Below the pieces are notes generated by a model, which made no database searches, was not told where the DNA came from, and worked only from the letters and a program-made list of their open reading frames with translations. This document shows, piece by piece, positions 3,103 through 58,510 of a stretch of DNA of 64,000 nt. The position numbers and the translations under genes are program-made. The stretch's first letter is position 1; every line of letters begins with the position of its first letter. This DNA is from Bacteroidia bacterium. Lineage in GTDB: Bacteria; Bacteroidota; Bacteroidia; NS11-12g; UBA9320. The DNA is taken from NCBI GenBank assembly GCA_018402155.1, contig JAGYJG010000001.1, positions 506,198 through 570,197 on the forward strand. The letters are read 5' to 3'.

Positions 3103-4278
3103 TTGAAAGTTTTATATTTTTTAACGAATTATCCGTCTTATTCAGAAACGTTTATTGCTGAAGAGATAAACCAACTTCGTGCACTTGGCCACACACCCAT
3201 TATATGTAATTTTACGTTTAAAACAGATGCACAACTAGACTCTGATTTTAAAATCCGAAACAACTCCAAAAATGTCTTCACTCTTTTCAAAGCTATTTAT
3301 GAGAATTCATTAGATGGGGACTCTCTTTTTTTTAATATATCTTTTTTACGTGCCATTATTTCTAGTATTCTACAAAAACCGAAATACTTTCTGAAATATG
3401 TATTTATGCTATTAAGTTCAGACTATATGCTGCAGCAAGCCAAGAAGGAGAATGCAGAGATGGCGGTTAATCATTTTTTATTTAAATCTACGCTGGCAGG
3501 GAGTTTTATTTGTGAAAAACTCAGTTTGCCCTATCATCTTAGATTACATACAAAAAATTACTTTTATGATGACAAACAATTGGCTCGGATACTTTTTAAT
3601 GCGCAAAGAGTGACAGCAATAGCGATGGATGTTAAATCATTTTATGAGGCAAAACTTGGTACTCTAGTTATCGATGTGGTGCGTCAAAGTGTAGACATTT
3701 CTTTTTTGACAGGATTGAATTCAGCCCCGAAAAATTCATCTATTTGTAAAATTATTTGTATTGGCCGTCTAGTCAAAAAGAAAGGCTTCAATTATCTAAT
3801 AGGTGCATTGGGAGAGATAAAAAAAAATAATGTGACAAATTGGAAATTAGATATTTATGGTGATGGTGCAGAATATTCTTACTTAGATAGTTTAATAGTT
3901 GCGCATGGGCTATCAGAAAATGTAAAGCTCTGGGGTCAAAAAAAACATGCTGAACTAATGATACTACTCGCTCAATCAGATTTATTAGTAGTGCCTAGTG
4001 TAGAAATGAAAAATGATATCGATGGGATTCCAACGGTACTTATAGAAGCCATGCTCATGAGGATACCAGTCTTGGCTTATAATACAGCTGGCATTCCCGA
4101 AATAGTTGTATCAGATAAAACTGGCTTTTTGGTAGAAGCAAAAAATATAAAGGAATTGAGCGATAAGCTGATTTATCTCATAGAAAATCCAACGATACGG
4201 CAAAGTGTGGTAGAGCAGGCATATAGCCATGTGCTCAAAGAATATAAAAGGAATTTGGCCAATGAATTTTTCCTCTAA
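3103..4278 (+). CDS. glycosyltransferase family 4
   Basis: ORF 3058-4278. The only plausible starts are TTG codons at 3058 or 3103 (giving MKVLYFLTNYPSYSETFI, a typical GT4 N-terminus). C-terminal 'EAMLMRIPVLAYNTAGIPEIV' GT1 signature. Confidence 0.65.
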   Translation: MKVLYFLTNYPSYSETFIAEEINQLRALGHTPIICNFTFKTDAQLDSDFKIRNNSKNVFTLFKAIYENSLDGDSLFFNISFLRAIISSILQKPKYFLKYVFMLLSSDYMLQQAKKENAEMAVNHFLFKSTLAGSFICEKLSLPYHLRLHTKNYFYDDKQLARILFNAQRVTAIAMDVKSFYEAKLGTLVIDVVRQSVDISFLTGLNSAPKNSSICKIICIGRLVKKKGFNYLIGALGEIKKNNVTNWKLDIYGDGAEYSYLDSLIVAHGLSENVKLWGQKKHAELMILLAQSDLLVVPSVEMKNDIDGIPTVLIEAMLMRIPVLAYNTAGIPEIVVSDKTGFLVEAKNIKELSDKLIYLIENPTIRQSVVEQAYSHVLKEYKRNLANEFFL

Positions 4279-5428
4279 CAAAGAAAAAAGAACTATAGCA
4301 TTTCTTTTTAGTGGCGATTTTCCTGAGGGAAATACCAAAAATGCACGCTTAAAAGTCTTAATCGATGGATTGAAAAAACACCATTGGGAACCTACTGTTT
4401 TTTCTGTATATCCATCTAAGTTTTCAGCCACTATACCTACTGCTCAACCAAAACATTGGAATAATACAGCAATTTCGTACTTTAGTATTTCACGAAGATA
4501 TTGGAGACATAAACCTTTTCGTCTTGTCCAAGTTCTTTTTTCACATGTTCATCTGCTTTGTTGGTCACTACTATTTGCGCATAAATATGATGTTTTTTAC
4601 TACTATAACCCCCGTTTTACGGACACGCTTCCGTCCTTACTTTTACAACGTATCCTTGGTAGAAAAGTAGTTGTAGACCAAACAGAGCTTTTTAGCTCAG
4701 GAAAAAATAAAACCATTCATTTATTAGAAGAAAAGCTCATAGCCCGACATTCATCTGTCCTACTTGTAATTTCAGATAAATTAATGAAATACTATCTAGA
4801 ATTTAGACAAAGAAATATATATAAGTTTCCAATTATTGTAGATTTTAAGAGGTTTGATGTTGTTGCAAATGAGCAAGAGCATCTAATAGGATATATTGGC
4901 TCTTTTGCCACAAAAGATGGAATAAATGTTCTTTTGGATGGAGTAAAAAAAGCCAGAAGTAAGTTACCTCAACTCAGGTTGAGACTTATAGGATACAATC
5001 CAAATATGAGAGCTTTACAGGAGTTATGTGCATTTAAAGGAATGTCAGAAAGCGTAGAAATAACTGGAACAGTGGCCTATGCCGAAATACCTTACTTGCT
5101 AAATGAGTGCGATACCTTTCTGATGAACAGGAGTAAGGATGCTTTTTCGACTTATGGTTATCCTATAAAACTAGGCGAATATTTTGCTTGCAGAAAACCA
5201 ATTTTGATGAGTGATGGCGTGGGGTTTTCGCAGGAGTTTGTGCACGGTGTGGAGGTTTATAAATTTGAAGAGGAAAATGCTGAATCACTAGCTACTGCAT
5301 TACTTAATAGGTATAAAAATAGGGAGGTAAGTGATGAAATTGCTAGACGTGGATTTACATTCTCTAGGCAGCATTTTGACGGAGAAAAAATGGTAAAATT
5401 TTTAAACCAAATTTTAATGAAATTATGA
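4262..5428 (+). CDS. glycosyltransferase family 4
   Basis: ORF 4229-5428. The internal ATG at 4262 (MNFSSNKEKRTIAFLFSGDFPEG) is more plausible and reduces overlap with the upstream gene. C-terminal 'GYPIKLGEYFACRKPILMSD' GT1 motif. Confidence 0.65.
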   Translation: MNFSSNKEKRTIAFLFSGDFPEGNTKNARLKVLIDGLKKHHWEPTVFSVYPSKFSATIPTAQPKHWNNTAISYFSISRRYWRHKPFRLVQVLFSHVHLLCWSLLFAHKYDVFYYYNPRFTDTLPSLLLQRILGRKVVVDQTELFSSGKNKTIHLLEEKLIARHSSVLLVISDKLMKYYLEFRQRNIYKFPIIVDFKRFDVVANEQEHLIGYIGSFATKDGINVLLDGVKKARSKLPQLRLRLIGYNPNMRALQELCAFKGMSESVEITGTVAYAEIPYLLNECDTFLMNRSKDAFSTYGYPIKLGEYFACRKPILMSDGVGFSQEFVHGVEVYKFEEENAESLATALLNRYKNREVSDEIARRGFTFSRQHFDGEKMVKFLNQILMKL

Positions 5429-6375
5429 AAAAAATAGCTGTGCTAGGAGGTGGTGGATTTATAGGTAACCATCTCATCAAAAGATTGAAACAAAATATTG
5501 TACACATAGTTGCTGTAGATCTGAAATACCCGGAGTTTGATAAAACAATGGCTGATGAATTTATAATTGGGGATCTCAGAAATCAAGAATTTGTCAAAAA
5601 AATACTCGCAATTCATTTTGATGAAGTGTATCAACTAGCGGCAGATATGGGAGGAGCAGGTTATATTTTTGTAGGTGAAAACGATGCAGATATTATGCAT
5701 AATTCAGCTCAAATAAATATCAATGTAGCAGAATGTTTGAAAAATACTAAAACTAGGGTTTTTTATTCATCTTCGGCATGTATTTATCCTGAAGAAAATC
5801 AAATGGATGCTCAAAATCCAAATTGTGCAGAGGCTTCCGCTTTTCCGGCAAATCCAGATAGTGAGTATGGTTGGGAAAAATTATTTAGTGAAAGGCTTTA
5901 TCTGAGTTATTATAGAAATTATGGATTAGATGTTAGAATAGCGCGTTTTCATAATATTTTTGGTCCATTGGCTGCTTATGAGGGAGGTAGAGAAAAAGCT
6001 CCCGCAGCTATTGTACGCAAGGTTGCCTTGGCGAAAGATGGAGATGAGATAGAGGTTTGGGGCTCTGGCTATCAAACTCGTTCTTTTCTTTATATCGATG
6101 AATGTTTAGAAGGTATACTAAGACTAATGGAATCTGATATAATAATGCCCATAAATATAGGTTCAGCAGAGATGGTTACTATCAATGAACTTACGGCTAT
6201 GGTAATAGGCATAAGCGGAAAAACACTGACTATCAAAAATATTGATGGACCAGTTGGGGTAAATGGCAGATGCTCAGACAATAAACTTATTGCTAATAAA
6301 CTGCAATGGCAACCTAATTTCCCACTCCATAAAGGGATGGAAATTCTATATAATTGGGTTCATTCTAAACTTTAA
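5425..6375 (+). CDS. GDP-mannose 3,5-epimerase (GME) family NAD-dependent epimerase
   Basis: 316 aa. GxxGxxG (GGGGFIG), LAADMGG, SSSACIYPE, YGWEKL, RIARFHNIFGP, GGREKAPAAIVRK, WGSGYQTRSFLYIDECLEGILRL, PINIGSAEMVTINELTAMV and GPVGVNGRCSDNKL all align with plant GDP-mannose 3,5-epimerase as I recall its sequence. 4-nt overlap with the upstream GT. Confidence 0.8.
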   Translation: MKKIAVLGGGGFIGNHLIKRLKQNIVHIVAVDLKYPEFDKTMADEFIIGDLRNQEFVKKILAIHFDEVYQLAADMGGAGYIFVGENDADIMHNSAQININVAECLKNTKTRVFYSSSACIYPEENQMDAQNPNCAEASAFPANPDSEYGWEKLFSERLYLSYYRNYGLDVRIARFHNIFGPLAAYEGGREKAPAAIVRKVALAKDGDEIEVWGSGYQTRSFLYIDECLEGILRLMESDIIMPINIGSAEMVTINELTAMVIGISGKTLTIKNIDGPVGVNGRCSDNKLIANKLQWQPNFPLHKGMEILYNWVHSKL

Positions 6376-6422
6376 TTTTAACGTTACAAATAAATAATGG
6401 AAGTACATTTGTTGTAAAATAT

Positions 6423-7604
6423 ATGAACTTATCTTTTGATAATACAGAGGTAGCTTTTGCTCATAAAACGAATGCAGATTTAAAAAAGGCATACCGACTT
6501 TTTCAAACGTTTGGTTCTCCATTTTTAGTAAAATATGGTCCTAAACTCACCAATTTAGCACTGAATTTTGGTCTTCCCATAAAAGGTATTATCAAGAAAA
6601 CACTTTTTGCCCAATTTTGCGGTGGAGAGACTATAGCCGAGAGTTTTCCTTCTGCTAAACAACTTTATGAAAATGGTATCGGTGCAATTCTGGATTACAG
6701 TGTAGAGGGGGAGGGTACAGGAGAAAACTTCGCAAAAGCTTTTGGAGAGCTTCAAAAGGTGATTATAGAGGCTACCGATAAGCCAGAGTATCCGTTTGCT
6801 GTTTTTAAATGTACTGGTATTGGTAATTTTCAAATGCTAGCCAACGTTACCAGCGCTCTACGTAATGGTGCTGAAACGACATATAGAGACGAACTAGACT
6901 ATCAGCATTTTCGCTCGCGATTTGAAGCGCTCTGCAAATTGGCATACGAAAATGGCACTAAGCTTTTTGTGGATGCTGAAGAAACATGGATTCAAGACGC
7001 CATTGACGAAATAACATATCAGAATATGGCTAATTATAATATTGACAATACTATTTTGTACAATACTATTCAGCTTTATCGTAAAGAGCGTATACCTGAA
7101 ATGAAGTATAGAATAGAAGAAGCACGTATAGGTGGATATAAGATTGGATTTAAATTAGTGCGAGGAGCGTATATGGAAAAAGAAGCTGCTAGAGCAGCAG
7201 AATTAGGCTATCAAAATCCTATACATCGAAGTAAAAAAGAAACGGATGACGACTACAATGCAGCCTTAAAGCTTTGTTTCGAAAATAGAGACGTAGTAAG
7301 TATTTGTGCAGGTACCCACAACGAGGAAAGCTCGCTGATTTTGGCACATCTTTTAGAGAGTGGAGAAATAGATAGAAATGATGACCGATTTTGGTTTGCT
7401 CAGTTGTATGGAATGAGCGATCACATCAGCTATAATCTAGCTGCTTCTGGATACAACGTAGCTAAATATTTGCCTTACGGACCTATAAAAGAAGTGCTTC
7501 CTTACCTTAGCCGTAGAGCACAAGAAAACAGCAGTGTTAAAGGACAAGCTGGCAGGGAACTTACTTTAATAAGTGCGGAACTAAAACGTCGTCGATTGGT
7601 TTAA
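6423..7604 (+). CDS. proline dehydrogenase (monofunctional PutA-like)
   Basis: 393 aa. C-terminal 'AQLYGMSDHISYNLAASGYNVAKYLPYGPIKEVLPYLSRRAQENSS' is the Pro_dh family signature. Confidence 0.8.
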   Translation: MNLSFDNTEVAFAHKTNADLKKAYRLFQTFGSPFLVKYGPKLTNLALNFGLPIKGIIKKTLFAQFCGGETIAESFPSAKQLYENGIGAILDYSVEGEGTGENFAKAFGELQKVIIEATDKPEYPFAVFKCTGIGNFQMLANVTSALRNGAETTYRDELDYQHFRSRFEALCKLAYENGTKLFVDAEETWIQDAIDEITYQNMANYNIDNTILYNTIQLYRKERIPEMKYRIEEARIGGYKIGFKLVRGAYMEKEAARAAELGYQNPIHRSKKETDDDYNAALKLCFENRDVVSICAGTHNEESSLILAHLLESGEIDRNDDRFWFAQLYGMSDHISYNLAASGYNVAKYLPYGPIKEVLPYLSRRAQENSSVKGQAGRELTLISAELKRRRLV

Positions 7605-15491: not shown

Positions 15492-15520
15492 GTTTCTGAT
15501 TAGGTTTCTTTTTACTTACC

Positions 15521-15568
15521 AAAACAAAAACAGGCTCTTTGCTTGCACAATAGGGCTGTTTTTGTTTG
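15521..15568 (+). terminator. intrinsic terminator downstream of recA
   Basis: Inverted repeat AACAAAAACAG ... CTGTTTTTGTT flanking a GC-containing core, followed by T-rich sequence, 30 nt after the recA stop. Confidence 0.45.
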
Positions 15569-15996
15569 AATTTGGAGAAAGTCACTATTTCGTATTCTTT
15601 TGGTAGGGGATCGTCCGTTAGCGAAACTAAACCAAAACTAAGCTGCAGTTAATCTAGAAATAACCATCCAAAATGCTCTAGTGGTGCAAAACTCAGCAAG
15701 TTAGAAACATCCATTGCTTCTGCATATAAACTAAACTAGTTAGTGTTGCTTACATCTGCAAACACAATTTAATACAATTACCTTATTTTTGAATTGGATA
15801 GCACTAAAAACACGGCAGTAGATTGAGGCTTACACCCAAGATTTTGACTGTATATGATTTATTAGCGGATCGGAGCGTTGCAAGTTGTATAAAATATTCG
15901 GTAGTTAAAGGCAACCCGACGCACCAAAAACATTGTATTGTGGTCATTAATACAGTATTGAGAAATTATTTACTTCTGTGATTGAGAGTCAATTTG

Positions 15997-16380
15997 TCAT
16001 CGTTTCCCCTTGTAGTCTCCTTTGTACTTGCGGTAGGGTGCCGCTATATACATCATAAGTAACCGGCTCATTCTGAAACTAATAGGTGAGGTAAACAAGG
16101 TGAAAGAGATAACAGCTCCTATGTACCATCCTAGGCTATAATCTACAAAATATGAGAAATAGAAAAAACCGATGATAATAAATGAGGCTACACTATATGC
16201 GTAGCTAAAATACATAGCTCCCCAAAAAAAACCAGGTTCACTCTCAAATTTCACTTCACATGATGGGCATTTTCCGTGCATATCCCTAAAATGCTTGAGA
16301 TTGGTTACTGAGTGAGTAAACACTTTACCATCTCTGCACTGTGGGCATTTTCCTCGAAAAAAAGCGGTAAGACTTGACAA
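15997..16380 (-). CDS. DUF983-like membrane protein (N-terminal CxxC...CxxC zinc-ribbon plus two TM helices)
   Basis: 127 aa. 'CPQCRDGKVF...CPSCEVKF' followed by two hydrophobic helices. Last gene of the cox-associated operon. Confidence 0.5.
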   Translation of the reverse strand: MSSLTAFFRGKCPQCRDGKVFTHSVTNLKHFRDMHGKCPSCEVKFESEPGFFWGAMYFSYAYSVASFIIIGFFYFSYFVDYSLGWYIGAVISFTLFTSPISFRMSRLLMMYIAAPYRKYKGDYKGKR

Positions 16381-16388
16381 ATCAGTAG

Positions 16389-16619
16389 TTAGCTGTTATT
16401 TTTTTTCTTGTAGTACCATGCGCCTCCGATAGCTGCAATAGCTAAATATGGTGTAGCGAGCAAGTATAGTATACCGTCATTTAGTCCTTTTCCTTTGGTG
16501 TGTCCTTTTTCCATGCCACTTTCTACAGCAGTTTTACACATAGGACATTGTGCCATAGTCGATATACTGAAAAGATTTATACCAGCTATTAAGAAAAAAA
16601 TAATTAATCCCTTTTTCAT
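16389..16619 (-). CDS. small exported membrane-anchored peptide with a CPMC / Met / His motif
   Basis: 76 aa. Signal peptide (MKKGLIIFFLIAGINLFSISTMA), a ~25-aa exposed segment QCPMCKTAVESGMEKGHTKG, and a C-terminal TM with basic tail. 8-nt gap to DUF983, 16-nt gap to the FkbM gene. Confidence 0.45.
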   Translation of the reverse strand: MKKGLIIFFLIAGINLFSISTMAQCPMCKTAVESGMEKGHTKGKGLNDGILYLLATPYLAIAAIGGAWYYKKKNNS

Positions 16620-16635
16620 ACTTGCAAAGATATAC

Positions 16636-17361
16636 TTAACTAGGTATAAAGAAGAAGTTTTGAATGTGACTGGGGTTACTTTGTATTGCTTCTAACTTGC
16701 CTTTTTGCAAAACCATAGGGATGTACTTTAATGATTGCAAGTAATCAAAGCAATCAAGTCTATTTTGGTTGTTCCAAAGCTCACAATAGATAATTGGTTT
16801 GCATCTTTTCAGTAGTTGTTCTGCGCCTTTAAATACCTCATATTCAAAATTTTCTACATCTATTTTTATTGCATCTATTTGTTTACCTTTTAGTTCTTCT
16901 TGGTCATCCAGTTTTTTGCACTGCGAGGTATATAGGCTTCCATCATTGTATTCGGTCATTTTGTGATCTACTACATGAGATAATCCTTGTTTTTTTACGC
17001 CGTTTACTATAGGTAATATCAGTTGAATTTCCTTGTTTTCATTGCCTAATGCGTTTGTTATTAGGGTTAGATTATCTAAATGGTAGCGTTTTTTTACTTT
17101 GCGTATCACCTCATAGTTGTTAGGCATAGGCTCAAAAGCAATAGTTTCCTTGCTTTGTTTGGCCAAGTAGTAACTCATCAGGCCCAGGTTTGCTCCTATG
17201 TCTAGTGTGGTAGCATTCTCTTTAATCAAACTCAAAAAATGGAAAAAATCATTTTCATTGGTATCGCCACGCAGTGTCTTAAGTTTGTACAATGTAAAGT
17301 ACCACAAATACCTGTCATATCCTAAAAGTTGTTGTAATATACGCTGAATTGCAGCCTTCAC
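16636..17361 (-). CDS. FkbM-family SAM-dependent methyltransferase
   Basis: 241 aa. 'LDIGANLGLMSYYLAK' SAM-binding motif I, typical of the FkbM family. Confidence 0.7.
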   Translation of the reverse strand: MKAAIQRILQQLLGYDRYLWYFTLYKLKTLRGDTNENDFFHFLSLIKENATTLDIGANLGLMSYYLAKQSKETIAFEPMPNNYEVIRKVKKRYHLDNLTLITNALGNENKEIQLILPIVNGVKKQGLSHVVDHKMTEYNDGSLYTSQCKKLDDQEELKGKQIDAIKIDVENFEYEVFKGAEQLLKRCKPIIYCELWNNQNRLDCFDYLQSLKYIPMVLQKGKLEAIQSNPSHIQNFFFIPS

Positions 17362-17371
17362 TCTCTAACAA

Positions 17372-17914
17372 TTAAAACGAGTAATATGGCGAAATCATGA
17401 CATAGACCAATACCCCTGTAACTGCTACATAAAGCCAAATAGGAAAGGTAAATCGTACAATTTTTCGATGCTTGGCTATTTTTTGGTTTAATGCGTACCA
17501 AAAAGACAACAGAATCATGGGGAGTACAATGGCAGCAAGCACAATGTGAGTTATGAGTATGATATAGTACGCATAGCGCATTATGCCTGTCCCACCATAG
17601 GTTGTTTCGGGTACAAAAAAGTGGTATACGACATAACTGATAAGAAATAGTGCCGATAGACCAAAGGCTGTAAGGTTGAGTGCTTTGTGTGTATCTATTT
17701 TTTTAGCTTTTATAGCGCGCAAGGACAGCACCAAAAGTATAGCGCACGTACCGTTGATAATAGCGTGTAGCAGAGGTAGTTTGTATATAAAATCAGGAAA
17801 ATCTGAAGGAGGGTTTAGAACGCGCTTGTTGAGCAATACGACCAATAGAAATACAACAATGCCAACGATCATAGCTATTCTAAAAAATGCTTTATCACTT
17901 ATTTTATTCATCAT
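17372..17914 (-). CDS. DUF420 family membrane protein (cytochrome oxidase-associated)
   Basis: 180 aa, four TMs. DUF420-like size, topology and position directly after the SCO gene. Confidence 0.55.
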   Translation of the reverse strand: MMNKISDKAFFRIAMIVGIVVFLLVVLLNKRVLNPPSDFPDFIYKLPLLHAIINGTCAILLVLSLRAIKAKKIDTHKALNLTAFGLSALFLISYVVYHFFVPETTYGGTGIMRYAYYIILITHIVLAAIVLPMILLSFWYALNQKIAKHRKIVRFTFPIWLYVAVTGVLVYVMISPYYSF

Positions 17915-18575
17915 CTTTTGCTTCTAAATCTTTATAGGTTTTCAGAAGGAAACGAGCATCTTGTATCATTTCCATTATTTCTGTAATATTGAGTCCATCG
18001 TATATACCACGCACTCTAAAGTCTTTGTCTACCAGCATTACTTTCTCACTATGTATAAAATCATTTGTATCTGGCACTTCTTGTATTACTGCTTTATAGC
18101 TATCTCTGGCAAGATGATAGATTGTACTTTTTTTTCCGGTCAGAAATTTCCATTGTTTATCATTTATTTCAAACTTGTCTGCGTATGCTCTAAGCACATC
18201 TATGCTGTCGTTGTATGGATCTACTGTATGAGACAGAAAAAGTATATCAGTACTGTTTTCTAATTTTTGACTTGCTATTTTAAGGTGTCCATTGATGGTA
18301 GGACAGATATCTGGACATGAAGCGAAGAAGAAATTTGCAATAAAAACGCGGTCACCAATGCTGTCTCGTGTAAAATTAATTCCATTTTGATCGATCAAAG
18401 AAAACGAATCGATGGTATACGGAACCTCCTTACCCATTTCGTTAGTGGTATAGATGGGCAAATCGTTATATCCAAATTCTGACTTTTTGAGCAGTATACC
18501 AAACAATACTGGAAGGCCAAGAATGGCCAATATGACGGAGACTACGAGTATACGTCTGCCTGTAGATTGTTTCAT
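17904..18575 (-). CDS. SCO1/SenC family copper chaperone (thioredoxin fold)
   Basis: 223 aa. N-terminal TM, 'FFFASCPDICP' CxxxC copper-binding motif, conserved downstream His region. Confidence 0.85.
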   Translation of the reverse strand: MKQSTGRRILVVSVILAILGLPVLFGILLKKSEFGYNDLPIYTTNEMGKEVPYTIDSFSLIDQNGINFTRDSIGDRVFIANFFFASCPDICPTINGHLKIASQKLENSTDILFLSHTVDPYNDSIDVLRAYADKFEINDKQWKFLTGKKSTIYHLARDSYKAVIQEVPDTNDFIHSEKVMLVDKDFRVRGIYDGLNITEIMEMIQDARFLLKTYKDLEAKDDE

Positions 18576-18596: not shown

Positions 18597-18953
18597 TTAA
18601 AAAGATCCCCAAAAATTACCCTCGTACATCATCCACACGAGAAAAAAAATAATAAAAAACATAGGCAATACAATCATAGAAGCTAAGCCAAGTTTTTCGT
18701 GTTTCATGTGCATAAATGTTCCGGTGATATAAATTGCCTTTACTACTCCAAGTGCAATAAAAATGATATTTCTTGCCATGGAGGGTTCCATTACGAAATA
18801 AAAGACAACGTCTATAATGGTAAGAACCAAAAGTATCCAGAATTTTTTCCAAATATCGGAGGTTCCGTGACTATGAACTTTAGGTACCCATACAGTTGGG
18901 TCATAATTTACTTCGTCGTGTATATCAACTTTTTGGTTTGAATGTGATGCCAT
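18597..18953 (-). CDS. cytochrome c oxidase subunit IV (caa3-type, bacterial CtaF/CoxD-like)
   Basis: 118 aa, three TMs. Position directly after the cox3 genes. Confidence 0.55.
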   Translation of the reverse strand: MASHSNQKVDIHDEVNYDPTVWVPKVHSHGTSDIWKKFWILLVLTIIDVVFYFVMEPSMARNIIFIALGVVKAIYITGTFMHMKHEKLGLASMIVLPMFFIIFFLVWMMYEGNFWGSF

Positions 18954-19016
18954 ATTTTACGTAATGATTAAATAATAAATAGTGTATTATGGTTAGAATA
19001 TTAGAAATTATCAAAG

Positions 19017-19814
19017 TTAGATAAGATAAAAGAATGTGAATACAAAAACCCAAACTAAATCAACAAAGTGCCAGTATAGGCCAACTTTTTCTACCATTTC
19101 ATAGTGTCCTCGTTTGGCATATGTACCTTTCAAGTTATTTATATAGACTATAATATTGAGCACTACTCCTGAGAAAACGTGAAATCCATGAAATCCTGTA
19201 ACCAAGAAAAATAAAGCTGCAAAAGAGGGTGGACCATAAGGATTAGCCCAAGGAGTAGCTCCAGCCGTAATAAAATTGGTCCATTCCCACGCTTGACAAC
19301 CCAAGAACATAAAACCACCTATAATAGTGTATAGCATCCATTTTGATACTGCTTTTTCATCACCTCGCTGTCCAGCTTCTACGCCTAACACCATTGTAAC
19401 ACTGCTCAATATGAGTATAAGTGTCATTAAACTTACGAATATGAGGGGTAGGTGCAGTCCATGTGCAAACGGAAAATGATTGAAAACTAAATCCGGTGAA
19501 GGCCATTGGTGCTCACTAAAAACAGTAAGTTCTCTAAGGGCTGGTATAAAGTGCTCGCCGTGGTGAGCATCAACACCTGGCGCAGCAAACTTCTCTTGTA
19601 TATTTTCACCAAATCCTAAGTCTAAGCTTTCTATTTGTTCAATTGGTGTAGACGGATTACTGTAGCGAATGGCTCCATATCCTATGAGCAAGGAGGAGAA
19701 CGTAAATGCATCTGATAATAGGAATACCCACATCATGAGTTTTCCATAACTTACATTGAAAGGCGAGTTTCCTCCGCCCCAAGTGCGAGATTTTGGTATT
19801 GTTTGTGTTGACAT
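19017..19814 (-). CDS. cytochrome c oxidase subunit III (long form)
   Basis: 265 aa polytopic protein. Conserved C-terminal 'HFVDLVWVFVFTFFYL' cox3 motif. Confidence 0.8.
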   Translation of the reverse strand: MSTQTIPKSRTWGGGNSPFNVSYGKLMMWVFLLSDAFTFSSLLIGYGAIRYSNPSTPIEQIESLDLGFGENIQEKFAAPGVDAHHGEHFIPALRELTVFSEHQWPSPDLVFNHFPFAHGLHLPLIFVSLMTLILILSSVTMVLGVEAGQRGDEKAVSKWMLYTIIGGFMFLGCQAWEWTNFITAGATPWANPYGPPSFAALFFLVTGFHGFHVFSGVVLNIIVYINNLKGTYAKRGHYEMVEKVGLYWHFVDLVWVFVFTFFYLI

Positions 19815-19817
19815 TAG

Positions 19818-20402
19818 TTAAAAATCGGGTGCAAAATATAAAAACAAATATAAATAAACCCATAAGAAGCCTACAAAGTGCCAATAAGTATTGCACATAC
19901 TGATTTGCAGAGTGTTTTTCTTATGAACTTGGAGTTTCATCGTTTTACCTAATATCACAGACAAATAGATGAGACCTCCGAAAATGTGTACTAAATGAAT
20001 GGCAGCTATAGCTATTAGAAAAGATGCAGAAACGCGATCTCCGTATTTTGGATTTACAAAGTGAAGCCCATTTTCCGATAATTGTACCCAGCCCATGTAC
20101 TGCGTAAAACCAAAAGCAATACCAAGAAGAATAGTCAAACTGAGTCCTATTTTTATACCAGTAATTTCATCCTTTTTCGCACTTCTGTAGGCATAAAGCA
20201 TAGTAATAGAACTTAGGAGAACAACGATGGTAGAATATAAAAATACCGAAGGTAGCTCAAAGTTATACCAATTTCCGTCGCCTTTTCGTACGATATAGGC
20301 ACTGGTAAGTCCAGAAAATAGCATCAAAATACCGAGTAACAGCAACCATAAACTAAATTTTTTAGGATGAACTCGGCCAGTGTATGTCAATTCTTCAGTC
20401 AT
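19818..20402 (-). CDS. cytochrome c oxidase subunit III (short form)
   Basis: 194 aa. 'YWHFVGFLWVYLYLFLY' cox3 C-terminal motif. A second cox3 paralogue is usual in Bacteroidetes caa3 operons. Confidence 0.8.
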   Translation of the reverse strand: MTEELTYTGRVHPKKFSLWLLLLGILMLFSGLTSAYIVRKGDGNWYNFELPSVFLYSTIVVLLSSITMLYAYRSAKKDEITGIKIGLSLTILLGIAFGFTQYMGWVQLSENGLHFVNPKYGDRVSASFLIAIAAIHLVHIFGGLIYLSVILGKTMKLQVHKKNTLQISMCNTYWHFVGFLWVYLYLFLYFAPDF

Positions 20403-20406
20403 AAGA

Positions 20407-21300
20407 TTATATTTTGTCTATGAGTAACACTATTAGCGCTAAAGGGTTGTAGACTATAGATGCAAACATTAGTTTTTTTGCTGCATCTATGGAGAGTGTC
20501 TTATACAGCTGATGTGCAAAGTAAACAAGTATTAAAGAGCCTATAGTAAGTAAGAAAATACTCAAAACACCGCTCATATTTATCGCATAAGGCAATGCAC
20601 TAATGGGCACTAGTAGGGTGGTTACCATTAGAATAAGAAGAGCAGTCGTTTTAGTTTTGCCTTTCTTTAAGGGTAAAAGCCGGTATCCTGCTTTTTTATA
20701 ATCGTCATCTAAAATCCAAGCTATAGCCCAAAAATGTGGAAATTGCCAAACGAACTGAATTAGGAAAAGTATGCCTGCAGCGGCAGAAAATCTACCCGTA
20801 GCTGCTACCCAGCCTAATAATGGGGGAATAGCACCAGGCACTGCACCTATATAAACTGCAACACTGGATACGCGCTTTAGCGGAGTATACAAAAATGCAT
20901 AACTTATCAATGATCCAATACCTAAAATTGCAGCATGTTGATTTAGGTAATAGCCCAATAAAAAAACTCCAAGTGCTCCAGTTAGGGTACAAAATATGGC
21001 CGCTTCCAAAACACTCATTCTGTTTTGTGCAAGTGGTCTGTTTTCCGTACGAGTCATAAGTATGTCATAGTTTTTTTCAATAATTTGGTTTAGTCCATTA
21101 GAAGATGCTACCACCAAAAAACCACCTAGTATAAGTGCAGTAAGTTCTACCCAATTTAGCGCACCCGAGAAACCAATTAAATAACCGAATACGGATGATA
21201 ATACGATTGTAAAGGTCAATCTGAATTTTATCAGTTGACTATAATCTGTTAACTTGGCTCTTATGCCCATATATTCAGTATGTATACTAGCTGATTTCAA
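20407..21300 (-). CDS. ctaB: protoheme IX farnesyltransferase (heme O synthase)
   Basis: 297 aa, UbiA-family polyprenyltransferase. Overlaps ctaA by 4 nt. Confidence 0.85.
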   Translation of the reverse strand: MKSASIHTEYMGIRAKLTDYSQLIKFRLTFTIVLSSVFGYLIGFSGALNWVELTALILGGFLVVASSNGLNQIIEKNYDILMTRTENRPLAQNRMSVLEAAIFCTLTGALGVFLLGYYLNQHAAILGIGSLISYAFLYTPLKRVSSVAVYIGAVPGAIPPLLGWVAATGRFSAAAGILFLIQFVWQFPHFWAIAWILDDDYKKAGYRLLPLKKGKTKTTALLILMVTTLLVPISALPYAINMSGVLSIFLLTIGSLILVYFAHQLYKTLSIDAAKKLMFASIVYNPLALIVLLIDKI

Positions 21301-22316
21301 TTGCTATTTGTAATTTTATTTACGGTTAAAAACGAAGTGCAAATATAAAATTGTATGACGAATATCGCTGCACCCATACTTATATGGAACAGTTTTGAAA
21401 TAGACGCCGTGGTGGGGTGTAAGGCTAGTGGTCCCCATACTAATTGAGCTATGCACAAAAACAGTATCCATTGGTACAATTTCTTTTTGTTGTTCTGTTT
21501 TTTTGCTACTATAAACTGGTAAATAGACATAACCAAAACGATAGAGCCAAGTACGGCGTGCCATTGGAAGGTGGGATACATTAGTTCAATTTTAGCTGCC
21601 ATGTCACCGATAGTAGGGAGTAAATCATACAATTCGCGTACTTCTGCTCCCAGTATTACCTGTATAGCTGTAAGTATGAGTAAAGCTGTTCCTATTTGTT
21701 TAGTTTTACTATCGTATTCTTCGACAATCTGAGAAATGGAATAGTGCCTGGCGAGTATAAAAAAACCAATACTAGCAAAAGCTGCAATAAAATGCAGTGT
21801 AACAATGCTGCCAATCAAGTTACTGTGAACTACCACTGCTCCCAATAGTGCATTGACCATTACAAAAATAAATCCAGCTAATGTATACCAAAATACGGGT
21901 TTATTTTTTCTAAAATACCTTAAACTCCATACAAAACATAGCAAAACTACCACACCTGTGAGTGCACCCCACAACCGATTTATATATTCTACATAGGCTT
22001 TAATTGCATTGAATTTGTGAGATTCTTCGACCTGTGTATTATTTCTGAGGGCATCAGCTTTTTTATTCCAGCCTATATGCTCTAGCAGTGATACAAATCT
22101 TTCATTTTTGGTAATCCGTTGCTCTTTAAAATAATTTTCGTAATCTGCTGGGAGTTCCTTTTCTGATAATGGTGGGATATACTCACCGAAACATTTAGGC
22201 CAATCTGGACAACCCATGCCACTGCCTGTACTACGCACCAATCCGCCAATCACAAATAACATAAAAATCAGTAATATGGATGTTCCGTTGAGTTGCTGAT
22301 ATGTTACTTTTTTCAT
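21297..22316 (-). CDS. ctaA: heme A synthase (COX15/CtaA family)
   Basis: ORF 21297-22337 begins with TTG. The in-frame ATG at ~22316 (MKKVTYQQLNG...) is the more likely start. Polytopic, conserved His residues in TM helices. Confidence 0.7.
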   Translation of the reverse strand: MKKVTYQQLNGTSILLIFMLFVIGGLVRSTGSGMGCPDWPKCFGEYIPPLSEKELPADYENYFKEQRITKNERFVSLLEHIGWNKKADALRNNTQVEESHKFNAIKAYVEYINRLWGALTGVVVLLCFVWSLRYFRKNKPVFWYTLAGFIFVMVNALLGAVVVHSNLIGSIVTLHFIAAFASIGFFILARHYSISQIVEEYDSKTKQIGTALLILTAIQVILGAEVRELYDLLPTIGDMAAKIELMYPTFQWHAVLGSIVLVMSIYQFIVAKKQNNKKKLYQWILFLCIAQLVWGPLALHPTTASISKLFHISMGAAIFVIQFYICTSFLTVNKITNSN

Positions 22317-22342
22317 TGTATTTAGGGTTTTGGGCAAAAAAA

Positions 22343-22375
22343 AGCCGTCTTCTGCAAAAAGACGGCTTTTTTGTC
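22343..22375 (-). terminator. intrinsic (bidirectional-type) terminator between coxI and ctaA
   Basis: 9-bp GC-rich stem AGCCGTCTT / AAGACGGCT with a 7-nt loop, followed on the minus strand by eight U residues. It sits in the ~69-nt gap between the coxI stop and the ctaA start. Confidence 0.55.
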
Positions 22376-22385
22376 TCTTGTTGTC

Positions 22386-24278
22386 TTATGCAGTTCTGGG
22401 TTTAAACCAGTTGCGGATTAAGTCGAAGAAGTTAGTGTTTTCTACCACTGATTCATCGTTGGTAGAGAGCACACTTTGTTTTTTAGTTTCAAATAGTTCT
22501 ACATCTTGTCCTTCGTCAGGTACATTTTGCATTTTAAAATCTTCTTCGTATGCAGGATTGCTGTAGTCATAAGCCCAACGGTATACTGTTGGTATTTCTC
22601 CTGGCCAGTTTCCGTGTATTCTTTCTACAGGTGTAGTCCATTCTAGGGTATTTGCCTGCCAAGGGTTCTGCGATGCTTTTTTACCAATGAATATGCTTGA
22701 AAAGAAATTGTAGATAAAAAGCAATTGTGCAATACCACCTAAAATAGCAGCAAGTGTCATTAGTACGTTAACATCTGCCCATACACCATACTCTGGAAGA
22801 AGCGTAAAAGCATAATATCTCCTAGGCACACCAGCTAAACCAATAAAGTGCATCGGGAAGAATACCAAATAAGCGGATATGAAAGTCAACCAGAAGTGAA
22901 GATAACCAAGAGGTTTATTCATCATTCTACCAAACATTTTTGGGAACCAGTGATAAATACCAGCTAGCATACCAAAAATGGCAGCACAACCCATAACTAT
23001 ATGGAAATGACCAACTACAAAATACGTATCGTGTAACTGAATGTCTAGCGTGGCATTTCCTAAAAATATACCTGTAAGACCACCAGAGATGAAGAAAGAT
23101 ACAAGACCAATAGCAAACATCATAGCATTTGTAAATCTGATGTTACCTCTCCAAAGTGTTGCTAGATAATTAAATGTTTTTACCGCAGAAGGTACAGCAA
23201 TTATGAGCGTAGTTACCAAAAATACTGCACCAAGAAGTGGATTCATTCCTGTGATAAACATATGGTGCCCCCAAACTATAAATGATAAGAATGCGATACC
23301 CAAAAGAGAGATGACCATTGCGGTATATCCAAAAATAGGTTTACGTGAATTTATGGCGATTACCTCTGAGGTAATACCCAAAGCAGGCATTATTATAATA
23401 TACACCTCTGGATGACCCAAGAACCAAAATAGATGTTGGAAGAGAACAGGACTTCCCCCGGTATGCTCTAAGGCACCTGCAGAACCTAGATAAATATCAG
23501 ACAAGTAGAAACTTGTTCCAAAGCCTCGATCAAACAAAAGAAGTAAACCACCTCCTAGTAAAACTGGGAAAGATAGCAGACCCAATACAGCAGTTAGAAA
23601 TAATGCCCAAACAGTGAGAGGTAAACGTGTCATTGACATCCCTTTTGTACGCATGTTTAACACTGTACTGATATAATTTATACCACCTAAAAGAGATGAT
23701 GCTATGAAGAGTATAATTGCTACTAGCCAGAGGGTCATCCCCATACCTGATCCTGGCATAGCTTTGGGTAGTGCACTTAGCGGAGGATAAATTGTCCAAC
23801 CTCCTGATGCAGGTCCTGTTTCTACAAATAATGACGAAAGTAACACTATGCTGCTAAGAAAAAAGAACCAATATGAAAGCATATTCATGAAGGGAGAAGC
23901 CATATCTCGGGCTCCAATTTGAAGTGGCAGAAGTAAATTGGCAAACGTGCCACTCAGACCTGCAGTGAGTACATAAAATACCATTATGGTCCCATGCATA
24001 GTCACTAATGCCATATAATATCCTGCATCCAATTTTCCATCTGGCGCCCATTTGCTTCCAAATAGCCACTCTAAAATAGGAAATGAAGTGTCTGGATAAG
24101 CTAATTGTAGTCGAAATGCAATAGACATTCCCATGCCAATTAGTCCCATTATAATTCCAGTTATCAAAAATTGTTTAGAGATCATCTTATGATCCATGCT
24201 AAAGACATACTTCGAGATGAAGGACTCTTTGTGGTGGTGATGTTCCTCTGTGTTTGCGTGTGCTACTGCTGTACTCAT
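22386..24278 (-). CDS. ctaD: cytochrome c oxidase subunit I
   Basis: 630 aa, 12+ TMs, conserved heme a/a3 and CuB His ligands (WFFGHPEVY, HHMF...). Confidence 0.95.
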   Translation of the reverse strand: MSTAVAHANTEEHHHHKESFISKYVFSMDHKMISKQFLITGIIMGLIGMGMSIAFRLQLAYPDTSFPILEWLFGSKWAPDGKLDAGYYMALVTMHGTIMVFYVLTAGLSGTFANLLLPLQIGARDMASPFMNMLSYWFFFLSSIVLLSSLFVETGPASGGWTIYPPLSALPKAMPGSGMGMTLWLVAIILFIASSLLGGINYISTVLNMRTKGMSMTRLPLTVWALFLTAVLGLLSFPVLLGGGLLLLFDRGFGTSFYLSDIYLGSAGALEHTGGSPVLFQHLFWFLGHPEVYIIIMPALGITSEVIAINSRKPIFGYTAMVISLLGIAFLSFIVWGHHMFITGMNPLLGAVFLVTTLIIAVPSAVKTFNYLATLWRGNIRFTNAMMFAIGLVSFFISGGLTGIFLGNATLDIQLHDTYFVVGHFHIVMGCAAIFGMLAGIYHWFPKMFGRMMNKPLGYLHFWLTFISAYLVFFPMHFIGLAGVPRRYYAFTLLPEYGVWADVNVLMTLAAILGGIAQLLFIYNFFSSIFIGKKASQNPWQANTLEWTTPVERIHGNWPGEIPTVYRWAYDYSNPAYEEDFKMQNVPDEGQDVELFETKKQSVLSTNDESVVENTNFFDLIRNWFKPRTA

Positions 24279-24301
24279 TATTTTAAATTTTACTTTATAA
24301 A

Positions 24302-26125
24302 TTAATTTGAAGCTACTGTTTCAGTTCCCTTTTCGGTTGTACTTTCTGTTTCCGCATTTTCAGTTTCTGTATTCTCTATTTTATTAACAAACAAACCTGC
24401 TTGTTCGTTCATCCATTTATCACGAGATTTTTGATCTTCTACTACTACTTTCATTTTCATATTAAAATGTGCGTTTCCACAAATCTTATTACATACTAAG
24501 TAATAGTCAAACTCTGGATCATTTTTTATGATTCGCATTTCCTCCGTGGAAATAATAGGTTTAAAGGTAAACTCAGTAGGTAATCCAGGTACCACGTTCA
24601 TCTGTGTCCTAAAATATGGCAGATAGGCAGAATGTATTACGTCTCTTGCTCTAAAATTTAGTGTGACTGGTACATCTTTTACGAGGTGAATTTCACCTAC
24701 CACTTGGTCGTCATCTCCCTCACTACTAAACATAGAACCTTCTTTTACAGCTAAAGCTCCTTTCAAACGCTCTATTTGAGTATTACGCGCTCTTATTGTA
24801 AGTCTTAGCTCATTTTCTTTATCCCCACTTGTATACGAATGGATATTTTTTAGATGAGATTCTCTTTCTTTATCTAATAAGCCACCCAATGTAGCCCGCA
24901 GTTTAGCCTCTTCTTGCGGCAAGCGTGAGATTGCTTCTTCCAGCGAAACTATTTCTTCTTGTAGTTCGGTAATTAAAGCAGTAGCATGTTCTCTATTTGC
25001 TACGCCTAGCGGATTCGTACCATTTATTAGGTTATAATTTGCCTTGCCTAATTTTCCGTCTGGACCAGGATAACGAGCATTCCACCCAAATTGATAGGCA
25101 AATACTTCTATTTGTTCTGCATTTTTACTTGAATCACTTCGTAGTATTTCATTCCACATTTTAAACCCACCAGACACCAATACAGCTAAAACTACCGCGG
25201 GGATTAAGGTCCAAACATATTCTAAATTATTGTTGTGCGACAAGAAATAAGCTTTTCTTCCGGGCTTTTGTCGGTATTTAAATGAAAAATAAAACAATAA
25301 AAACTGTGTAATAAAAAATACTGGTAAAGTCGCTGCAAAGGTCCATTGCATCATTTTATCCATATCTACACCATGCTCTGATGCACTTTGTGGTAGTAAA
25401 AATTGTTTGTGAATACTATATTCATAAAGCACTAATCCAAAAAAACCAATTAAAAAGATTAACATCATATATGCATTGATGTTATTCCAATTGATGATTT
25501 CTCGACCAGTGACATTTGATACCAATTCCAATATCCCGAATATGAGTAAGATAATGACAAAAACTAGTATTGACATTACCACAACTGCCCAGTTTACATT
25601 ATTGAAAAGGGAATCATTTATTGGAGCAGTGGGGACTGGCTCACCGCCCTCTACTGCAGCTGGAGCATCACCATCCCCTTTGTTGTCTATCCACATTAAT
25701 ATTGAGGTGATTTGGTCATCACTCAGATTCTCAAAAATGTTCATGGCTGCACCGTTATATTCATTGTAAATGGCCAATGCACGTTCGTCTCCAGCTTTTA
25801 CTAATTTTTGATTGTTCTTTATCCAAGCATTCAACCATTCATAATCCTCATCGTATTTATCTATAAGACCGGCTAGAGCTGGGCCTACTACTTTACCATT
25901 TAGAGCGTGGCAAGAAGCACAATTCGCAGAGAATAACTCGCTACCTTCTTTTATACGTTCATCTGTACCCTCTTGGCCCGCTATAGGACGGGTCAAATTA
26001 TTTTTGTATGCAAAAGAGTGATGTACGAAAAATATTCCGATGATCAGGAATAGCCATTTAAAATTTTGTTTGAAATTGTTTGACATTAATACCCTATTTT
26101 TTATGTTCAAAATTAAGTGAGGCAA
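24302..26125 (-). CDS. cytochrome c oxidase subunit II fused to an N-terminal cytochrome c domain
   Basis: 607 aa. N-terminal 'CASCH' heme c motif. C-terminal CuA centre 'H...CNKICGNAHFNM' (C-x3-C-G-x2-H-x2-M). The true start may be the internal ATG at ~26086. Confidence 0.85.
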   Translation of the reverse strand: MPHLILNIKNRVLMSNNFKQNFKWLFLIIGIFFVHHSFAYKNNLTRPIAGQEGTDERIKEGSELFSANCASCHALNGKVVGPALAGLIDKYDEDYEWLNAWIKNNQKLVKAGDERALAIYNEYNGAAMNIFENLSDDQITSILMWIDNKGDGDAPAAVEGGEPVPTAPINDSLFNNVNWAVVVMSILVFVIILLIFGILELVSNVTGREIINWNNINAYMMLIFLIGFFGLVLYEYSIHKQFLLPQSASEHGVDMDKMMQWTFAATLPVFFITQFLLFYFSFKYRQKPGRKAYFLSHNNNLEYVWTLIPAVVLAVLVSGGFKMWNEILRSDSSKNAEQIEVFAYQFGWNARYPGPDGKLGKANYNLINGTNPLGVANREHATALITELQEEIVSLEEAISRLPQEEAKLRATLGGLLDKERESHLKNIHSYTSGDKENELRLTIRARNTQIERLKGALAVKEGSMFSSEGDDDQVVGEIHLVKDVPVTLNFRARDVIHSAYLPYFRTQMNVVPGLPTEFTFKPIISTEEMRIIKNDPEFDYYLVCNKICGNAHFNMKMKVVVEDQKSRDKWMNEQAGLFVNKIENTETENAETESTTEKGTETVASN

Positions 26126-53827: not shown

Positions 53828-53909
53828 GCCCGGATGGCGGAATTGGTAGACGCGTCGGTCTCAAACACCGATGCCGCAAGGCGTGCCGGTTCGACCCCGG
53901 CTCCGGGTA
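53828..53909 (+). tRNA. tRNA-Leu (anticodon CAA), type II with a long variable arm; 3' CCA not encoded
   Basis: Folded by hand. Acceptor GCCCGGA/TCCGGGT, 3-bp D-stem with GG in the D-loop, anticodon stem TCGGT/ACCGA with loop CTCAAAC, 13-nt variable arm, T-arm GCCGG-TTCGACC-CCGGC, discriminator A. Confidence 0.8.
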
Positions 53910-53914
53910 CTTCA

Positions 53915-57477: not shown

Positions 57478-57520
57478 TACTTGGTTTTTTTCTTTTCTGT
57501 TATTCGTATTCTAAAAAAAA

Positions 57521-57883
57521 ATGCAAAACTATAAGCCGGGTTCTGTACTCGCCGAAGCAAGTGCTTACCATTTATCTATGCTACCTACCCTCTATAGTTT
57601 CTCAATTATATTGAAAATCGGACGAGCTGCCCTCTACCTATAGTTTACTTGGTATTACAACGTGCAAGGTTTGTACCAAATGAATGTTGCCACTCAAGCG
57701 CGTGAGCTCTTACCTCACATTTTCACCCTTACTCACGATTTCTCGGAGCGGTTATTTTCTGCTACCCTTTCTGTTACCAAGGTATTCCTACCTCAGCACC
57801 CTTTATTTCTAAAGGTACACTGCTCTGTGTTGCCCGGACTTTCCTCCCTCCGCCGAAGCGAACAGCGATAAGCCGTTTTGCAG
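57521..57883 (-). ncRNA. rnpB: RNase P RNA, bacterial type A
   Basis: Minus-strand reading gives 5'-CUGCAAAACGGCUUAUCGCUGUUCGCUUCGGCGGAGGGAGGAAAGUCCGGGCAACACAGAGCAG...GGUAAGAGCUCAC...GGUAACA...GUAAGGGUGAAA...ACAGAACCCGGCUUAUAGUUUUGCA-3'. It contains the universally conserved P4 region (GGAAAGUCCGGGC), GUAAGGGUGAAA, GGUAAGAGC and the ACAGAACCCGGCUUAU 3' strand, with 5'/3' ends pairing as P1 (UGCAAAAC/GUUUUGCA). A -7 box TACATTTG lies immediately upstream, and a U-tract follows the 3' end. Confidence 0.85.
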
Positions 57884-58510
57884 TACAAATGTATAGTTTT
57901 TTGAACGTTATTTTATACTCTCGTTTATTCACGTGTTAGCCACAATTCTTGCTCAATCTGTGTTATTTTAAAATAAGTGTAACCATGATATCATTTTGTG
58001 ACTTTCTGAGAATTGTCTCAATTTTTCGATACAGAAAGTATTTTAATGTTAGATTCAAATCGCTAATCCAATTTTTTTTGGGTACAAAAGATTTTCTTGA
58101 GTTAAATTTAATAAGAGATATTTGCTTTTTTCAACTATTTGACTTGAGTTTTTTCTTGTTTCTAGAGTTATGAAACCATAAGCTAAGACATCAATAAGTC
58201 ATTAATGGATTTCTTTAGCAGCCTCATAGCATTTAGTAATCATCTTGTAACGTGTCAAATAGATTTGGGCTACGTCATAGTGTAAGCTATAAAAATAGCG
58301 TTGGCCGCAATCAAAGTTTGGGAGTTGCAATACTGAAATGGTTTAGTGGTAAGTAGTGCGAATACTACTGATTTTAAGAATATCAAATTAAGGCTTAGAT
58401 AAGAAAGTGTATTCAAAATAAAGTATTCCACAACGCCTATGCGTATATGTTATTTAGTTTTCGTAGTAATTTACTAAAAAAGACCCGTTTTTTGTAGGCT
58501 TGAATTTAAA

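Follow-up and report, generated by a model that had tools for sequence, protein, structure and literature searches.

A widespread family of small cysteine-motif membrane proteins encoded in the caa3 oxidase operon of Bacteroidota

Results and discussion

A small protein family without a profile

The 64,000-nucleotide (nt) stretch of a Bacteroidia bacterium genome analysed here (assembly GCA_018402155.1, contig JAGYJG010000001.1, positions 506,198 to 570,197; hereafter the window, in the coordinates of which all positions are given) carries on its minus strand a caa3-type cytochrome oxidase operon, the tail of which codes for an FkbM-family S-adenosylmethionine (SAM) methyltransferase, a 76-residue membrane protein, which we call pep76, and a DUF983 protein. 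The pep76 gene is real and belongs to a large and widespread family that has so far been left unannotated. Its product is probably a new helper of the Bacteroidota caa3 oxidase, since both an invariant QC(P/A)MC tip and the position of the gene in the operon are kept across many Bacteroidota. The three tail genes had been proposed in an initial annotation of the window to form one accessory module; they are instead three elements with different histories.

No profile of Pfam or NCBIfam matches the pep76 open reading frame (ORF). A word-indexed search returned 130 homologues which, where they are named, are called only "hypothetical protein". The family comprises 1,488 cluster representatives (50% identity clusters, E<=1e-3), of which 642 are found at 1e-10, and extends to at least 550 species genomes. 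All of the 150 representatives with the best scores are small, and no fusion proteins were found among them, the longer ones inspected being products of mis-called upstream starts. A comparison of the pep76 profile with the sequences of the PDB gave nothing significant (best match E=0.5), and no earlier description of the CPMC motif was found in the literature.

Motif and topology of pep76

The gene and the parts of its product are located as follows:
16389-16619, minus strand: pep76, 76-residue small membrane protein (ORF and homologues)
16551-16619, minus strand: predicted cleaved signal peptide, residues 1-23, ending in T-M-A
16536-16550, minus strand: Q-C-P-M-C motif, residues 24-28, predicted mature N-terminus on the periplasmic side
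16410-16475, minus strand: C-terminal transmembrane helix, G49-Y70 (conservation and AlphaFold2)

The arrangement of a signal peptide, a short exposed stretch and a C-terminal transmembrane helix, which had been read from the single sequence, is borne out by residue statistics drawn from 247 family sequences and by an AlphaFold2 model with a predicted local distance difference test (pLDDT) score of 71, in which helices span residues 3-22 (signal), 26-37 (starting from the CxxC) and 44-75 (transmembrane). The residue before the Gln is A, S, G or T in 100% of the 247 sequences, position -3 holds a small or aliphatic residue, and position -2 varies; apart from this cleavage-site pattern, the N-terminal region is without conservation. 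As this signal-peptidase I rule holds family-wide, the mature protein most likely starts at QC(P/A)MC. The segment exposed between the cleavage site and the transmembrane helix is predicted to be about 21-24 residues long, and the mature soluble segment to read QCPMCKTAVESGMEKGHTKGKGLND. The possibility of a lipoprotein (lipobox [LVI][ASTVI][GAS]C) was considered and rejected: an invariant Q precedes the first Cys, and the A-x-A one residue upstream fits signal peptidase I.

Within the motif Q-C-x-M-C, the Gln and both cysteines are present in 247 of the 247 sequences and the Met in 240, while x is most often P (181), followed by A (50) and S (11). The exposed Cys-x2-Cys that the initial annotation had pointed out beside Sco is thereby confirmed as an invariant feature, but the wider ligand set it had described, with a Met and a His added to the CxxC, is not: only Q-C-x-M-C and a Glu about ten residues past the Gln (Glu33, 230 of 247) are conserved. 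The second Cys is followed by K (169 sequences), R (60) or, in the rest, T or S, and never by H, which rules out a c-type heme site (CXXCH). Further on, residues G45, L46, N47, G49, I50, P57, Y58 and W68 show little or no variation, placing a G-L-N-x-G-I at the membrane interface and a P-Y and one Trp in the helix, and the C-terminal tail is rich in Lys (mean of 3.5 K/R vs 1.0 D/E). Such strong conservation of a transmembrane helix points to a specific membrane partner.

Gene order in the window and across Bacteroidota

The other genes of the operon are, in the direction of transcription:
24302-26125, minus strand: coxII (ORF and profile match)
22386-24278, minus strand: coxI (ORF and profile match)
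21297-22337, minus strand: ctaA (CtaA assignment confirmed by Pfam)
20407-21300, minus strand: ctaB (UbiA assignment confirmed by Pfam)
19818-20402, minus strand: first cox3 (COX3 assignment confirmed by Pfam)
19017-19814, minus strand: second cox3, cox3b (COX3 assignment confirmed by Pfam)
18597-18953, minus strand: cox4 (COX4 assignment confirmed by Pfam)
18597-26125, minus strand: the upstream block as a whole, from coxII through coxI, ctaA, ctaB, cox3 and cox3 to cox4
17904-18575, minus strand: SCO1/SenC copper chaperone (PF02630, E=5.8e-25), with a CPDIC motif seen in the translation
17372-17914, minus strand: DUF420/CtaM homologue (PF04238, E=4.5e-43)
16636-17361, minus strand: FkbM-family SAM methyltransferase, 241 residues, GTG start (PF05050 and TIGR01444)
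15997-16380, minus strand: DUF983 protein, 127 residues, TTG start (PF06170 in orthologues)

The Pfam and NCBIfam profiles bear out the family assignments of the oxidase-operon genes, including those to COX4, COX3 (twice), UbiA, CtaA, SCO, DUF420 and FkbM that had been made from the sequence alone, with the exception of pep76; DUF983 stays below the threshold. The FkbM, pep76 and DUF983 frames are present on the minus strand as had been called, and the next gene past DUF983 is recA, on the plus strand and thus convergent. The SCO and DUF420 genes overlap by 11 nt, and the gaps that follow are 10 nt (DUF420-FkbM), 16 nt (FkbM-pep76) and 8 nt (pep76-DUF983), so that the range of -11 to +21 nt given in the initial annotation holds for the operon tail. 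It does not hold further upstream, where coxII and coxI are separated by 23 nt and cox3b and cox4 by 63 nt (18954-19016), above the 21-nt maximum.

Synteny was analysed in the best 80 of at least 550 pep76 loci, in which the neighbours were found by tblastn with the window proteins. In 77 of these, pep76 lies within a caa3 operon. Its upstream neighbour is DUF420 (47 loci), FkbM (27) or SCO (three), with no cox gene there in the other three, and downstream it is followed by DUF983 in 62. The order from coxII to DUF420 is usually intact, with intergenic gaps mostly below 40 nt. The record titles place the loci in Sphingobacteriales, Chitinophagales, Saprospiraceae, Flavobacteriales and unclassified Bacteroidia, and several that name Proteobacteria appear to come from mislabelled bins. 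In Pontibacter (Cytophagales), DUF420 is followed by a 98-residue homologue with the sequence SQCAMC and then by DUF983, and in three loci where DUF420 lies elsewhere (L045, L056 and L076) pep76 remains directly after SCO. Both pep76 and DUF983 are thus co-located and co-oriented with A-type oxidase genes over distant lineages. Conservation of the gene order outside this genome, on which the module proposal depended, is therefore found for these two genes, but not for FkbM, which is restricted to one clade.

The SCO gene itself is not found in all loci. In L079, the slot between cox4 and DUF420 (6827-7318) holds a membrane-anchored protein of 163 residues that is devoid of Cys and has neither a Pfam match nor BLASTP similarity to the window SCO. 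Four other loci, Saprospiraceae-like as L079 is (L055, L077, L078 and L080), have a similar gap without an SCO match. All five retain DUF420 and a pep76 homologue, with QCPMC seen in L079.

A candidate internal promoter before pep76

The 16-nt gap between FkbM and pep76 contains a sequence that matches the TAnnTTTG consensus of the Bacteroidota -7 box:
16625-16632, minus strand: candidate -7 box TATCTTTG, 5 nt 5' of the pep76 ATG

A TAnnTTTG box lies 4-5 nt before the pep76 ATG in 31 of the 80 loci, which are related and do not count as independent events. They comprise 23 of the 27 loci containing FkbM, six other in-operon loci (L016, L018, L026, L042, L053 and L054, all without FkbM) and two of the three stand-alone copies of pep76 (L064 and L071); L003 and L006-L015 are also among the box-bearing loci. 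When the criterion is relaxed to a box at most 16 nt from the start, 33 of the 80 loci have one before pep76, compared with 0/62 starts for DUF983, 0/70 for DUF420, 2/62 for SCO, 0/24 for FkbM, and 0.6% of random windows. Among the box-bearing loci, the box and its spacing are maintained even though its degenerate positions and the flanking sequence vary. The idea that a box appears wherever the upstream gap is large was rejected, as only 12 of the 26 loci with a gap of at least 14 nt have one. A sigma-70 scan was uninformative (46 sites vs 45 expected), and the strict two-box Bacteroidota promoter pattern has no match in the operon-tail region.

Since the box abuts the pep76 ATG, the transcript is predicted to start at or next to it, and this candidate promoter would possibly provide a gene for a small protein with a leaderless or near-leaderless mRNA. 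The single transcription unit of the initial annotation consequently needs amending: with a conserved -7 box between FkbM and pep76, it is probable that in the clade of the window pep76 and DUF983 also have a promoter of their own, abutting the ATG.

The terminator that had been placed between coxI and ctaA is real:
22338-22372, minus strand: intrinsic-terminator-like hairpin followed by T8

The hairpin is a strong one (GCCGTCTT...AAGACGGC). No TAnnTTTG box comes after it, so that transcription of the assembly genes seems to rely on read-through. At the start of the operon, the TTG start called for coxII coincides in part with two TAnnTTTG boxes (26130-26123 and 26115-26108); translation may in fact begin from the ATG at 26086 (MSNNFKQ...), which would put the operon promoter immediately 5' of it.

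DUF983

The DUF983 protein of the window scores 20.9 bits against PF06170, just below the cut-off of 22.6, but the profile matches 14 of 14 aligned orthologues (E<=0.01, best E=2.4e-9), and precomputed annotation assigns most of the orthologues in the database to PF06170. The description of this protein as a cytoplasmic four-cysteine zinc ribbon with two transmembrane segments is upheld by the alignment, in which C12, C15, C38 and C41 of the CPxC...CxxC ribbon are invariant, as are Glu46, Glu48, Arg103 and Arg106, and by an AlphaFold2 model (pLDDT 82) with helices at 49-77 and 83-113. The gene is absent from 16 of the 80 loci. Neither a comparison of its profile with PDB sequences, which gave nothing significant, nor a Foldseek search of its model against the PDB, without a match at E<=0.001, relates it to a solved structure.

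The association of DUF983 with oxidase operons is already in the literature and is not new here. DUF983 has been described within alphaproteobacterial COX operons and called COX4-like (PMC4013037, PMC10411912); these proteins belong to the same Pfam family and to A-type oxidase operons of another phylum. The similarity to COX4 implied by that label was not reproduced for the window protein, for which an hhalign comparison with the window COX4_pro gave a probability of 0.6% over 5 columns, and a COX4-like identity was therefore rejected. As only Bacteroidota were found among the best 120 matches listed in a homology search, and likewise in a plasmid search, the link to the alphaproteobacterial proteins rests on the literature.

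More distant DUF983 paralogues occur on Bacteroidota plasmids, outside cox contexts. On the Runella slithyformis plasmid pRUNSL04 (L091, 2817-4387), DUF983 comes directly after sulfur-transporter-like YeeE/YedE and DUF6691 genes, and on the Persicobacter plasmid pPP3 (L090, 5992-6360) a paralogue is likewise found outside an oxidase operon. The family is thus not oxidase-specific. In the operon studied here, the probable role of DUF983 is in assembly or as an adaptor.

Possible functions of the operon tail

The routes by which copper reaches CuA and CuB of heme-copper oxidases vary between phyla, and the role of CtaM/DUF420 is an actively studied question. CtaM is required for aa3 and caa3 activity and not for heme insertion (PMC9145763), and a 2026 study proposes that it is a copper exporter and that Sco binds the exported metal (PMC13344008). 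A review of the known bacterial oxidase assembly factors that was searched makes no mention of Bacteroidota. Against this background, pep76 is a concrete and testable candidate for an oxidase accessory factor, with a mature peptide of 53 residues, and a copper-handling role beside Sco and CtaM is plausible given its motif and gene neighbourhood. The explanation that we consider best, and that we put forward tentatively, is that pep76 is a dedicated oxidase copper-handling protein, that DUF983 is a frequent downstream partner and that FkbM is an insertion.

Under this explanation, pep76 is exported and then cleaved after A-x-A, and its conserved C-terminal helix holds it in the membrane with about 21-24 residues on the periplasmic face and the invariant Q-C-[P/A/S]-M-C at the very N-terminus. 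The thiolate/thioether site of this tip may bind Cu(I), and the helix may serve to dock the protein on CtaM/DUF420, CoxII, CoxI or another membrane partner, so that pep76 would pass on or hold copper between the proposed export by CtaM and Sco/CuA (or CuB) during the maturation of caa3. A bolder and more doubtful version makes pep76 the missing copper-handling component, a cleaved and C-terminally anchored micro-protein that would dock with its Cu(I) tip on CtaM/DUF420 and hand the copper exported by CtaM to Sco/CuA or CuB. If this were true, the CtaM step would gain a defined periplasmic acceptor.

The resemblance of pep76 to known copper proteins is one of function and only by analogy, not one of family membership. 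Like pep76, the Sco partners in CuA assembly PCuAC/PcuC/PccA (PF04314) are extracytoplasmic, linked to Sco and A-type oxidases, and equipped with sulfur ligands for Cu(I), which in pep76 are candidates. They are however folded beta-sandwiches of more than 100 residues with the motif H(M)X10MX21HXM, whereas pep76 has about 22 exposed residues, a C-x-M-C, no conserved His, a helix as an anchor and no sequence similarity to them. Membership of pep76 in the PCuAC family, to which its role had earlier been likened, is not supported, as it has no PCuAC match in Pfam at E<=0.01, no such motif and no folded domain. CtaK (YtkA) of Bacillus subtilis is a membrane-tethered, extracytoplasmic and lineage-specific factor implicated in CuA assembly that acts with Sco, as pep76 might (PMC9145763; PMC13344008), but it is built as a lipoprotein around a folded YtkA domain, while pep76 has no detected homology to it and differs in its signal-peptidase I site, the Q before the Cys and the C-terminal helix. 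The heavy-metal-associated (HMA) domains of CopZ/Atx1 (MxCxxC) share with pep76 a Cys-x2-Cys that opens a helix and has a Met close by. HMA domains are nevertheless cytoplasmic, ferredoxin-like and about 70 residues long, and pep76 has no such fold and no HMA match in Pfam (CopZ, E=0.79). CtaM (DUF420) is the operon mate of pep76, usually directly upstream, and is needed for oxidase activity in Firmicutes; it has four or five transmembrane segments and has been studied in Firmicutes, while its small Cys-motif partner is seen here only in Bacteroidota loci.

Several observations weigh against a copper-handling helper. The exposed segment is too short for a folded chaperone domain, and no significant structure match was found, CopZ being hit only over the CxxC, at the E-value given above. 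The CxxC could equally be redox-active or a structural disulfide, and a richer copper site finds no support in His40 (44 of 247) and Met36 (85 of 247), which are poorly kept. The strongly conserved helix suits a permanent subunit as well as it does an assembly factor. Furthermore, three of the 80 loci have a stand-alone pep76 away from any cox gene, and as the 80 loci are the best-scoring ones, the sample is skewed to relatives of the window.

The strongest alternative is that pep76, and perhaps DUF983 too, belongs permanently to caa3, or to the supercomplex that caa3 forms with alternative complex III, as a small subunit, the helix packing on CoxI/CoxII and the Cys pair forming a structural disulfide or metal site. 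We regard this as rather unlikely, yet several features would suit it. Single-helix small subunits are common in heme-copper oxidases; the transmembrane helix of pep76 is as conserved as its motif; where DUF420 has been relocated, pep76 is still found with SCO and the structural genes; and a dedicated promoter box could lift its expression above that of the assembly genes. Against it, pep76 follows SCO and DUF420, where the operon codes for assembly factors, and is not beside cox4, neither pep76 nor DUF983 matches any chain of a solved oxidase, and 16 of the 80 loci lack DUF983.

For FkbM, which the explanation favoured here treats as an insertion, the family assignment is firm: it matches PF05050 (E=1.3e-18, 68.1 bits vs a cut-off of 22.7) and TIGR01444 (E=1e-23, 84.4 bits vs 37.7), its SAM-binding motif D54-I-G-A-N-L-G60 is seen intact in the sequence, and it has no hydrophobic or transmembrane segment. 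It is a cytoplasmic enzyme and a predicted SAM-dependent methyltransferase, without a homologue among solved structures at E<=0.01. The 27 loci with FkbM in the operon all fall, in a neighbour-joining tree of SCO and DUF420, into one clade that includes the window. Within this clade the gene is missing from no fewer than four separate places (L017; L001, L002, L004 and L005; L016 and L018; L068), and in L001, L002, L004 and L005 the DUF420 stop lies 6-13 nt from the pep76 ATG. Orthologues with 49-53% identity have pyrG on one side and yidC or a histidine kinase gene on the other, and kdsB lies upstream; they group together as a subclade nested within the cox-linked sequences, and deep-branching members are cox-linked. 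The simplest history would be one insertion, several losses and one relocation. In L082, L086 and L088, FkbM (at about 4001-6735) comes directly after pyrG, in a neighbourhood with a cell-envelope flavour.

The grouping of FkbM with pep76 and DUF983 in one module therefore fails, as FkbM belongs to the operon of one clade only, is missing in close relatives and has orthologues linked to pyrG and yidC. Judged by its distribution, it is a clade-specific passenger or accessory without a demonstrable oxidase role, and treating it as such guards against its over-annotation as an oxidase factor. That it is instead a true caa3 accessory enzyme, methylating heme, quinone, lipid or an oxidase subunit, so that the module would be real within this clade, appears improbable to us. 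The intact SAM-binding motif would agree with such a role, as would the retention of the gene at the same junction, with gaps of mostly about 1-20 nt (where starts are clear), over a divergence down to about 48-50% identity. This reading is opposed by the absence of FkbM from the operon in most Bacteroidota lineages and its repeated loss in its own clade, by the nested subclade near pyrG, yidC, the histidine kinase and kdsB, and by a weak RfbT-like Pfam signal in some members, which points to glycan methylation. No literature linking FkbM to oxidases or their biogenesis was found, and the passages of the assembly-factor review name no methyltransferase, a term for which the review was not searched.

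Least probable of all is that the CxxC of pep76 serves as a TlpA- or Coa6-like thiol-disulfide relay keeping the CxxxC of Sco and the CuA cysteines of CoxII reduced, for while pep76 neighbours SCO and its CxxC opens a predicted short helix (26-37) as in thioredoxin-type motifs, it lacks a thioredoxin fold and has a soluble part of only about 22 residues, a Met such as the near-invariant one between its cysteines (240 of 247) is found more typically in Cu(I) sites than in redox CxxC motifs, and no gene for a reductant partner lies nearby.

Other features of the window

The convergent DUF983 and recA genes are separated by a non-coding spacer of 505 nt (15492-15996) in a genome that is apparently compact (~2.4 Mb). 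Rfam gave nothing relevant for this spacer, with three matches at chance level (E 0.37-0.99), and no nucleotide or translated conservation of it was seen in 80 related loci. Over the whole window, Rfam and ARAGORN identified only two RNA genes:
57516-57884, minus strand: RNase P RNA class A (Rfam, 177 bits)
53828-53910, plus strand: tRNA-Leu(CAA) (Rfam/ARAGORN)

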